Virus record (IMG/VR): IMGVR_UViG_2654587685_000013
Strand: one strand, 5' to 3'
Origin: a virus
Taxonomy: Duplodnaviria > Heunggongvirae > Uroviricota > Caudoviricetes
DNA length: 4,475 nt
The position numbers are program-made. Shown here piece after piece: positions 1 to 3,000 of this stretch. Positions within the stretch are counted from its first letter, which is position 1, and every line of letters starts with the position of its first letter.

Positions 1-3000
1 CGGGGTATACCGGGTTTATCCTCGCAAACAAGAAATTTATAAGCGCAGTCCTGAGCAGCCGGATAATGTTCCAGGAATTGCCAGTGAAATTTTGCTCGAG
101 CACGGCGTTCGTCGCCAGCTTCAATGGCTGTGGCTACAGCCACAGCGCCTTCTTCCCTTGCTGCCAGCTCGTCAGGAATAGCGGCGCAAATAAAGACTTT
201 ACTCATTTTGTTTTAACCTCATTACAGATTTAAGGGTGAACAAATCCCTGCCATTGCTGGCATATAAAAATGAAACCGGATATTAATTACGGTGCTGTTT
301 TAAGTCCTGCCGGGATTTCGTTATTATCCTGGTGAATAACTTTATCGACCGGATAACAGTTACCGGGAATTTTCTGCTCCACTGCGGCAACCATGCATTC
401 TTTCATTGAGCCGTATACGCCAGTAACCATGTCAACCGGTTCACCGGAAACAAGAAAAACCGTCAGAACAAGTGCAAATGTGATATTCATTGCCAGTATC
501 CTTTTTGCATCAGGCGTAAACGGGCCAGCATTGAAACAATGCATATTTTATCCAATAGCTCCCGTTCGTGTTTTCTCTTGTTAATGGCATCTTCAGTAAA
601 TACAGGGTTACTGATTTTGACACCAATTTCAAAACAACCTTCAGACGTATTAACGTTTGGTAATAACGTTTTCATTATCGCACCCTCAACAATGAATTTT
701 GTGATGCGGTGCCTGGTGCCTCCAGGTGACGTTAACCAGTTAACAATTAACGCCGGATACAGAGCCCCACCCACAACACTGTTTTTGGTTTTAACTGTTC
801 CGCGTGCGCTTAGCCGCATTCACCGCATCACAAAATTCACTTTAAAAAGGACGGCAGAGCAGTCACGGAGTAAAACTGATACCGCCAAACGCCACCAGAA
901 AATTGATAACAGAGGGCGTTGCAGCGGGGTTGTCACTTAAGCGCATGGTCAACCTGACAACCCGGTGTCTCAATGGGGGAGGAATAACCCCGCCATACTT
1001 ACCGCCGCGCCATTTCGCGGAGTGCCACAACCGGAAGCGCACGGTCGACGAAAATTTAACGACAGGCTATCTATGAACCAACTACCTCGCCGTGCGCTTT
1101 CGCGTTATGCCCTGACTTTTCAGGAAAATGCCCTTTCAGCAAACTGTCAGTGCCGGATGCTCACCCGTGTCCGACGCACGCACTCCACCTCACCCGTGGA
1201 GAACCCCTTAATTACCAACCCTCAGGAGGGTGAAATGACTAGTAAAAATGTAAATATCCAGTTTAACCACGATGTTTCTCCTGCTGGACTTGCGGATGAT
1301 CTCACCGCTATAAAAACGGCAATTATGCTACTTGCTGCTAAGTTGCCTGCGTCATCAAAGCCAGCGGAAATTTGTGACTCATTGCGTAAGATGAATTCAA
1401 CAAAATGCAATGAGATGGCATCACTTATTGAAAGTGCAATTGATTTTAATGATTAATCGAAATTTCATGGCTAACTGTAACCCTCCCATCTGTGGCGGGA
1501 TGGTTTAAATCGCTGGGATTAATGCCGCACTCAGTAAAATGGTTCTTAAGGGGGTCTATCCGAATCCCTTTCTTTTTCATTAACAAGCCAAACCCCTTAT
1601 CAATGATGTCCATTAGATCCAGGAAGTATTTTTCATGTAAATCCTGGTTATCAGAGAGCTGCTTCTCTTCGTACAGACCGATAAAGGCACGACGCACGTT
1701 ACCGGATATAGTATCGATGGTTTCTTTTTCTACGGCACTCAGGTCAAGAGTCGCCAGTTGGGAACGAACTATATTCGCTGCCATTTCCTGGAATTGCATT
1801 GGTAAATCTTTAAATTCCATTATTAGCCTCGTTGGTTAGCTATTAACGTGGGTATGTAATCATTCTGGCAATGCTTAATGCCGCTGCTTTTTCCAGCCTG
1901 GTGATATCCTGCTCCAGAGCGGACAGATTTTCAGCCTGCTTAGCCCTGGCTTCATTGGCCCATTTCAGATCCTGCGCTGCATTAATTTTCTGGCGCATCC
2001 ACTCATAAAGTTCATCATCGGTATAGTCTGGCGCGATGATGACGGGTTCTCGTTTCTGCATACTGATTCCTTGCGGTGCTGTTTCCCCTTAACGCCGGGG
2101 TAGCGGAACAAAAACCTGCTGCATAGTTATTAAAGTTGAACCCTGCCGTCATGTTCTTACACCTCGGGCTGGCTACTTACCCCCTGACCACTGCCTGGTA
2201 ACTCGAAGTATTGCCCTGCATTCTGTGGGGCGGGGTGGGTTGGTATGTTGTTAAGGTAACAAGTGTTACCTTTCGAGTCAATGCAATGTTGCAAAAAGTA
2301 CATTTGAGGGCGTGAAAAACCCGCAATGAATGCGGGTTATGACTCAGTCTAAGTATTGATGTATTTGTGAAACTTTACCTTTAATGGTGTAACCACCATT
2401 CAGTTCGATGGGTTTGTAAAGCGGATTCAGTGACAACAGATAGATGTTTGGTCCGTCAATCGCAACTTTTTTTAGTGTTACGTTTGGCGTTCCTTCCAAT
2501 TGGATTAAGATTATTTTTCCCACCAGTTCTCTAATGTTACTTGAGCATGGTGTGATCAGCACGGTAGATCCGTCGGGGATGGTTGGGAGGCCGTTAGAGT
2601 TTGTCATCGCATCTCCCTCAACATGCAATAAAAAAGAGTTTTCAGCGGTTTTTGTCATGACATCAACCCAATTCTTAATACCAGGAATCTCGGTTACTGG
2701 ACAACTCATATCCCAATAACCAGCCTGTTCCCACGTTAAAACGGGCAACCGGGCGATGTTGTCACTAATGTAAAGGTACTGATTCAGACGCAGATCATCG
2801 GTTTTATCGTGACCGTCCTTTCCATAAAGAATCCATTCAGGAGATTTGGAAAGCAATTTTGACAGTAGATGCAAATTCTCACCGTCAGGTTTTGAAGAGC
2901 CATTTTCCCATTTTGTTACGGATACACGAGATATGCCGATTGCTTTCGCAACCTGCTGTTGGGTTAATCCAACGTCTTTTCGACGATTCCGAATACGTTC

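Follow-up and report, generated by a model that had tools for sequence, protein, structure and literature searches.

The stretch of DNA considered here, referred to as the window, comprises 4,475 nucleotides (nt) of a Caudoviricetes virus (IMG/VR record IMGVR_UViG_2654587685_000013). On its minus strand it carries a dicBF cassette, made up of the small RNA (sRNA) DicF, the cell-division inhibitor gene dicB and a homologue of ydfD, and, upstream on the same strand, the gene of a full-length CI/C2-type repressor; a cro-slot gene, a YdaT-family gene and an O-like replication gene are found on the plus strand (Table 1). We interpret the window as the early control region of a lambdoid prophage of E. 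coli, with the standard dicBF cassette as part of a pL-type leftward operon that is predicted to be repressed by CI, and give this interpretation a probability of about 0.88.

Table 1. Genes, RNA elements and control sites located in the 4,475-nt window (aa, amino acids; bp, base pairs; HTH, helix-turn-helix; ORF, open reading frame; OR and OL, right and left operators of lambda; a point marks features without assigned strand).
Feature	Position	Strand	Basis and remarks
Large prophage exonuclease gene, 5' end	1-206	-	PHROG 2082 'exonuclease', 155.7 bits; runs off the window
ydfD homologue (DUF1482), 67 aa	287-490	-	PF07358; start overlaps dicB stop as ATGA
dicB, 62-aa cell-division inhibitor	487-675	-	PF05358; annotated dicB in the closest genome
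Structured DicF-dicB spacer, 173 nt	676-848	-	From DicF 3' end to dicB ATG
DicF intrinsic terminator	841-886	-	Hairpin GGCGGUA...UGCCGUC 850-886, U-tract (UUUUU) 844-848; Rfam structure line
DicF sRNA, 53 nt	849-901	-	RF00039 and alignment to K-12 dicF; allele A10G + C50U
602-bp segment absent from K-12 Qin	1221-1822	.	BLASTN breakpoints
73-aa ORF, convergent, function unknown	1235-1456	+	PHROG 7249, 155 bits
124-aa ORF (orf124), function unknown	1446-1820	-	PHROG 6937, 270 bits
ydfC, first gene of the leftward operon	1843-2061	-	96.6% DNA identity to K-12; PHROG 1744; annotated in the closest genome
Leftward-operon leader	2084-2250	-	85.6% identity to Rac (K-12 locus L003, 4466-4624), between racR and ydaG
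OL-like operator GTAACAAGTGTTAC	2256-2269	.	Between cI terminator and ydfC; exact GTAAC-N4-GTTAC
Intrinsic terminator after cI	2314-2338	-	AACCCGCA-TTCA-TTGCGGGTT then TTTT; sequence reading
CI/C2-type repressor, 238 aa, HTH + Peptidase_S24	2344-3060	-	Pfam, lambda CI alignment
OR-like region, two exact operators	3019-3080	.	3019-3032 and 3067-3080, between cI and cro; centres 48 bp apart
cro-slot gene, P22_Cro family	3110-3325	+	Pfam P22_Cro, 59.4 bits vs 30.2
YdaT-family CII equivalent	3322-3747	+	Pfam PF06254, 39.7 bits vs 21
O-like replication initiator	3771-4475	+	PHROG 11896, PHROG 391, Pfam HTH_36; cut by the window end

A near-exact DicF sequence with its terminator had been proposed in the initial annotation, made from the sequence by eye, and the Rfam covariance model RF00039 confirms it: positions 849-900 of the minus strand match the whole model (1-52 of 52) with 70.8 bits against a gathering score of 48 (E 9.6e-15), and K-12 DicF obtains 76.7 bits in the same test. 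The 53-nt RNA corresponds to this match plus the first U, and 51 of its 53 bases are identical to dicF of the K-12 Qin locus. Both substitutions are well defined by the alignment. C50U, in the 3' arm of the terminator, changes CCGCCC into CCGUCC and a G-C pair into a G-U pair; it is the CCGCC to CCGTC difference, with a wobble that keeps the stem, which the initial annotation had already named. The second one, A10G (GUGACG to GUGGCG), had escaped that reading. The canonical terminator hairpin is kept with its one G-U wobble, at -13.2 kcal/mol as compared with -15.9 kcal/mol in K-12 (2.7 weaker); the terminator scan made no call at this site, where it is uninformative owing to a loop too long for the scan rule. 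DicF lies within a prophage operon, 3' of ydfC and 5' of dicB. In the RefSeq E. coli records that contain the locus, dicB and DUF1482 are annotated and DicF is not ('none' under the match). Among species-representative genomes, near-exact DicF was found in two E. coli records only, a scan which does not inform on a wider host range.

The two proteins of the cassette are equally well supported. The 62-aa product matches Pfam PF05358 from its first to its last position (1-62 of 62) with 127.6 bits (cut-off 27) and is 90% identical to K-12 DicB, as had been expected of it. The 67-aa protein in the YdfD slot matches PF07358 with 81.6 bits (cut-off 25) and is 78% identical to K-12 YdfD, from which it differs by 14 substitutions and four additional C-terminal residues; its hydrophobic N-terminus (ITFALVLTVFLVS) and its coupling to dicB, whose stop overlaps the ydfD start at 487-490, can be read directly in the sequence and agree with the earlier description. 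Chance is discounted for DicF, DicB and YdfD, since the family-level matches far exceed their thresholds. A longer ORF of 110 aa (487-819) was considered and rejected, being a mere in-frame 5' extension of dicB through the spacer, with neither annotation nor family support.

The gap of about 170 nt noted between DicF and dicB measures 173 nt and is strongly structured. Its minimum free energy is -69.3 kcal/mol (z = -6.0), and none of 200 shuffled sequences was as stable. In its long outer helix, the bases just 3' of the DicF terminator pair with those just 5' of the dicB Shine-Dalgarno sequence. The spacer is nearly invariant with respect to K-12 Qin, both differing positions remaining pairable, and shows higher conservation than the coding sequence on either side; the leader found 5' of kilR in Rac is 81% identical to it. 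The Rfam family STnc100 gives a sub-threshold match (38.6 bits vs 47; 34.4 for the K-12 copy). Taken together with the processing described in K-12 (PMC10448788), the spacer is probably a substrate of RNase III, and it may also gate dicB translation. In Rac (K-12 locus L003, 3250-3466, aligned with window 691-854), kilS and kilR are laid out like dicF and dicB, and the kilS region scores below threshold with the DicF covariance model (39.1 bits vs 48).

As had been stated in the initial annotation, a full-length CI/C2-type repressor with an altered peptidase site is encoded upstream on the same strand. Pfam finds HTH_3 (60.1 bits) and Peptidase_S24 (61.0 bits), and the protein aligns over its full length with lambda CI (3bdn, E 1.1e-13), while its N-terminal HTH domain resembles that of P22 C2 and shares 54% identity with DicA over 70 residues. 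Opposite Ser149 of lambda (EGNSMT) an Ala is found (EGDAMT), so that the S24 nucleophile is replaced. The equivalent of Lys192 is retained (TLKKV vs lambda TFKKL, with K197 and K198 invariant in the family), as is the Ala-Gly scissile bond (EQAGYW vs VQAGMF around lambda Ala111-Gly112). The repressor is 100% identical to RefSeq WP_001394126.1, and all six E. coli relatives compared, whose CI is 98.7-100% identical, carry GDAM. In 5426 complete E. coli genomes, the set to which all genome counts given here refer, the CI gene occurs in 702, and in 682 of them at 99% nucleotide identity or more. Because of the RefSeq identity, the six relatives and these 682 genomes, the exchange of Ser for Ala is not a sequencing accident; moreover, such a number of nearly identical copies argues for a working repressor above toxic genes. 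In the family alignment, Ser is present in most homologues, including cluster P0003 (87% identity), and Ala in clusters P0001, P0002 and P0005; a Salmonella cluster 68% identical to the repressor likewise has Ala. Among the phage records searched, no CI more than 45% identical to that of the window was found.

The translation start of the repressor is probably the ATG at 3018, the annotated one at 3060 lying too far upstream. Several homologues start at the 3018 position (MK...), and the 'NIGYM' conserved in the N-terminal extensions of homologues is the translated operator GTAACCAATGTTAC, which abuts this ATG. If CI does start there, its message would be short-leadered or leaderless, as in lambda PRM. 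A sub-threshold Rfam match to Trp_leader was discarded, as it is caused by the terminator after cI, and another to ZEB2_AS1 was set aside as a chance match below threshold.

The connection between repressor and cassette is provided by the operators. The palindrome GTAAC-N4-GTTAC is present in three exact copies in the window, where 0.09 are expected and none of 200 shuffles reached three. Two of them form the OR-like region and the third lies 5' of ydfC; all three occupy the same positions in each of the six relatives carrying this CI, and neither the Qin nor the Rac locus contains the motif. Lambda OR/OL and dicCp/dicBp of Qin (PMC10448788) are arranged in the same way. A candidate leftward promoter can be recognized by eye (TTGACT at 2276-2281, a 17-nt spacer and TACCTT), the operator at 2256-2269 overlapping its spacer and -10 hexamer. 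The same operator being shared by OR and the region 5' of ydfC, control of the leftward operon by CI is supported, and we infer that it is exerted through GTAAC-N4-GTTAC. The terminator scan called no minus-strand terminator-like site between this operator and DicF.

On this basis, the minus strand would be read from promoter and operator through ydfC, orf124, DicF, the spacer, dicB, ydfD and the exonuclease gene, and then, beyond the window, xis and int. In a lysogen, CI would bind its operators at the cI/cro promoters and at the leftward promoter and keep the toxic cassette silent, as the operator pattern suggests. Upon failure of repression, a polycistronic transcript would be made and presumably processed as in K-12, a cut by RNase E generating the 5' end of DicF and its 3' end arising from termination or from a cut by RNase III. 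By analogy with K-12, DicF would then pair with ftsZ and with metabolic mRNAs; the K-12 sRNA uses its 3' region to repress ftsZ and its 5' region to repress xylR and pykA (PMC5069750). DicB would, as in K-12, block septation together with MinC and prevent ManXYZ-dependent phage entry, roles described in PMC10448788 and PMC6832061, and YdfD would provoke lysis through inhibition of IspG, as its K-12 counterpart does (PMC8835842).

Several observations weigh against this interpretation. The consensus promoter scan made no call at the leftward promoter, whose -10 hexamer TACCTT is weak, nor did it call the cI/cro promoters. A single exact operator is present on the left side, as compared with three in lambda. 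The 602-bp insertion with its convergent ORF stands between the promoter and DicF, and could hold signals of its own or hinder read-through. A10G permits a predicted alternative DicF fold of -15.1 kcal/mol, against -13.2 kcal/mol for the canonical one. The loss of CI self-cleavage is predicted from one residue, by analogy with LexA and lambda, and no Rem-like antirepressor was found in the 16 kb of the closest relative that were searched.

The way in which repression could be relieved deserves separate consideration. LexA S119A and the Ser149 mutants of lambda CI are precedents for lost self-cleavage, and, by this analogy, a repressor with Ala at the nucleophile is probably insensitive to RecA-stimulated self-cleavage. 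Since CI has Ala at that position, derepression would probably not follow the RecA route; an antirepressor, or switching that is stochastic or driven by stress, like that of DicA in Qin, appears the more likely trigger. Alternatively, CI might still be inactivated during the SOS response, either through cleavage of its Ala-Gly bond in trans by another S24 protein or through an SOS-controlled antirepressor encoded elsewhere, which would make the cassette SOS-inducible. Conservation of the Ala-Gly site, of the Lys and of the remaining S24 fold is compatible with this idea, and E. coli strains often harbour several lambdoid prophages with active S24 repressors, the dicBF module alone being found in up to nine places per genome. 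Efficient trans-cleavage is not known to serve as a natural route of induction, which counts against the first version. As regards the second, control of non-cleaved repressors by antirepressors is established for Gifsy phages and for Rem of Qin (PMC10448788), but none was identified in the remnant prophage of the closest relative: tblastn of Rem against the 16 kb gave nothing, a 59-aa ORF after hokD, considered as a Rem-like candidate, is not similar to K-12 Rem, and no antirepressor is annotated in the remainder of the remnant. SOS induction of the cassette is judged unlikely, though more probable than the other alternatives considered.

The preferred interpretation, that CI silences the cassette, has to be compared next with a purely positional association, in which the cassette would have a promoter of its own nearer to DicF, for example within the 602-bp segment or the approximately 100 conserved nt upstream of the sRNA. 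The weak and uncalled leftward hexamers, together with the insertion that parts ydfC from DicF, speak for such a promoter, and in K-12 the build-up of DicF in stationary phase also occurs without dependence on the antirepressor (PMC10448788). Opposed to it are the identical operators at OR and 5' of ydfC, kept in the six relatives, and the K-12 precedent, where the operon has its major promoter in dicBp, the pL analogue immediately 3' of the repressor gene (PMC10448788). Furthermore, the scan called no minus-strand promoter-like site in 901-1822; its sole call on that strand (1846-1819) falls at the ydfC/orf124 junction. Independent control of the cassette is regarded as improbable.

Somewhat less probable still is a functional alteration of the DicF allele (A10G and C50U), in which G10 would let the 5' seed region pair with the terminator 3' arm, masking the seed that acts on xylR and pykA, and the terminator would be weakened, with more read-through to dicB. 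In ViennaRNA predictions, the minimum-energy structure does switch to an extended fold that includes this pairing, the alternative fold reaches -18.5 kcal/mol when A10G alone is placed in the K-12 sequence, and the duplex of DicF with ftsZ (-50 to +20) falls from -33.8 kcal/mol in K-12 to -29.5 (RNAduplex, a crude whole-molecule estimate distinct from the pairing validated in PMC5069750). The allele is also rare, being found in four of the genomes (O6:H16 2014EL-1346-6, TW10690, E1316 and E1739), and most relatives with the same CI have the K-12 allele. The energy differences, however, are small, the alternative fold makes up 15% of the ensemble, and Hfq and co-transcriptional folding lie outside the model. 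The covariance score is far above threshold, and termination may not be affected, since the U-tract also follows the alternative hairpin directly. Two single-nucleotide changes in 53 nt are ordinary allelic drift, and the DicF of the closest relative shows two changes of its own, different from these. Finally, it is very improbable that the cassette belongs to a dead prophage and is decaying without function: head and tail genes are missing from the prophage of the closest relative, but all ORFs of the window are intact with full-length family matches, DicF and the spacer are nearly invariant, and the module is kept in most E. coli genomes and in viable phages.

The genes around the cassette complete the picture of a lambdoid early region. 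The initial annotation had placed a YdaS/YdaT switch beside the repressor, of which the YdaT part stands and the YdaS part does not. The YdaT-family protein is 32% identical to Rac YdaT (E 1e-15) and scores 158 bits with PHROG 163 ('CII-like transcriptional activator'), and its gene is placed directly after cro and before the replication genes; YdaT has been described as a CII equivalent (PMC9986795). The protein in the cro slot belongs to the P22-Cro type: its YdaS identity was rejected with 18.5 bits for PF15943 (YdaS_toxin, cut-off 30), and BLASTP gives no alignment with Rac YdaS. A search of the window for the YdaT box TTGATT-N6-AATCAA (PMC9986795) returned one site with one mismatch (3315-3332, plus strand), which is not significant given the 0.43 expected by shuffling; it lies at the cro/ydaT junction, within the sole 32-bp stretch 97% identical to Rac.

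The mosaicism relative to K-12 that had been suggested is visible in the BLASTN segments. The window is collinear with ydfC-dicF-dicB-ydfD-ydfE of K-12 Qin at 92-97% identity: positions 1-1220 match Qin (start of ydfE, ydfD, dicB, dicF and the region upstream) at 92%, and 1823-2085, which contain ydfC, at 96.6%. Window positions 1220 and 1823 correspond to the adjacent Qin bases 5063 and 5062, that is, to clean breakpoints of an insertion. Unlike K-12 Qin, the window lacks ydfA and ydfB. The immunity region, to the right of about 2250, is related to neither Qin nor Rac. The convergent plus-strand ORF of the insertion occupies the position of sieB in Rac, to which it is unrelated in size and family. 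Such a mosaic of Qin-type and Rac-type modules is the ordinary state of lambdoid prophages.

The distribution in complete genomes points in the same direction. The 287-901 module is present in 4651 of the 5426, with a median of two copies and a total of 10,787 in the E. coli set, and 501 hold at least 80% of the window in one place. Four genomes match the whole window at 98.4-98.6% identity, the best (98.6%) being E. coli isolate L1_E925, and no complete genome searched matches it at 100%. In the closest genome the order is ompW, int, xis, exonuclease (2472 bp), DUF1482, dicB, hypothetical genes, ydfC, 'LexA family protein', Cro, YdaT-family, O-like and DnaC-like genes. The prophage lying there beside ompW is a remnant of about 22 kb without head or tail genes (NZ_LR883050.1, 2680354-2702266). 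This remnant holds the genes from int to Q, a Ser/Thr kinase-phosphatase pair, a DNA methyltransferase, three tRNAs, holins, a truncated endolysin and tail-fibre fragments, as well as hokD and a Doc-family toxin. Among phage records, 38 contain the module, which is complete in eight. The unusualness implied by the initial annotation is therefore not borne out by these counts, nor by the phages, which pair dicBF with an S24-type CI and a YdaT-type gene; a dicBF cassette under a full CI is an already known kind, the literature describing dicBF in many prophage contexts.

What the locus adds can be stated briefly. Labelling DicF adds a real, functional sRNA gene to the records, with little significance beyond correct annotation. 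The dicBF cassette moves as a module and is found under a wide variety of immunity regions, control by DicA being a particularity of K-12. The fixed Ser-to-Ala exchange in CI, carried by about 13% of E. coli genomes, is the sole point worth following up, and is mildly interesting. The data suggest that this CI represents a selected, RecA-insensitive immunity type. Going further, it could tentatively be viewed as a naturally selected 'dead-peptidase' repressor which uncouples a prophage family and its dicBF cassette from the SOS response, as a step of domestication, and the rare DicF allele with its alternative fold could then be a secondary tuning of that cassette; this is a possible reading, to which we lend limited credence. 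Were CI indeed uncleavable, about one eighth of E. coli genomes would carry a cassette toxic through division block and lysis under a repressor that DNA damage cannot remove, which would bear on the domestication of cryptic prophage genes.

Compared with known systems, the window shares with K-12 Qin the order of a repressor followed by a leftward operon on the same strand. The components differ: the Qin repressor DicA is a 135-aa HTH-only protein, as against a CI of 238 aa with S24, the Cro of Qin is DicC and that of the window is of P22-Cro type, and the exonuclease gene 3' of ydfD, intact here, is replaced in K-12 by the pseudogene ydfE with an IS2 insertion. The same immunity type is found in other E. 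coli (WP_001394126.1 / WP_000103687.1; L1_E925, O6:H16 2014EL-1346-6, ST131 and O111:H8), most of these relatives retaining ydfA and ydfB, unlike the window. Phages vB_EcoS-640R1, Tritos and mEp460_ev081 have the same int-xis-exonuclease-ydfD-dicB-DicF-ydfC layout, with a module about 90-91% identical. In vB_EcoS-640R1 the CI is an S24-type protein of 199 aa which keeps the catalytic Ser (SDSM), where the window has Ala, and in Tritos the module, with DicF annotated, lies under an HTH-only repressor of 139 aa; both phages carry a YdaT-family gene in the CII slot, as the window does. A division inhibitor in the early-left operon downstream of the repressor is likewise seen in kilS-kilR of Rac and in kil of lambda pL, although KilR is unrelated to DicB and the Rac sRNA only distantly DicF-like.

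The closest parallel for the regulation predicted here is offered by GfoR/GfhR of the Gifsy phages and by DicA-Rem of Qin, non-cleavable repressors which are relieved by antirepressors (PMC10448788); a similar insensitivity is predicted for the CI of the window, for which the prophage of the closest relative yielded no cognate antirepressor. GfoR, GfhR and DicA are entirely devoid of an S24 domain, whereas CI has kept the whole domain with its nucleophile alone replaced. If the proposed uncoupling from the SOS response is true, a step comparable to that of DicA in Qin would have been taken by a single-residue change instead of the loss of a domain.

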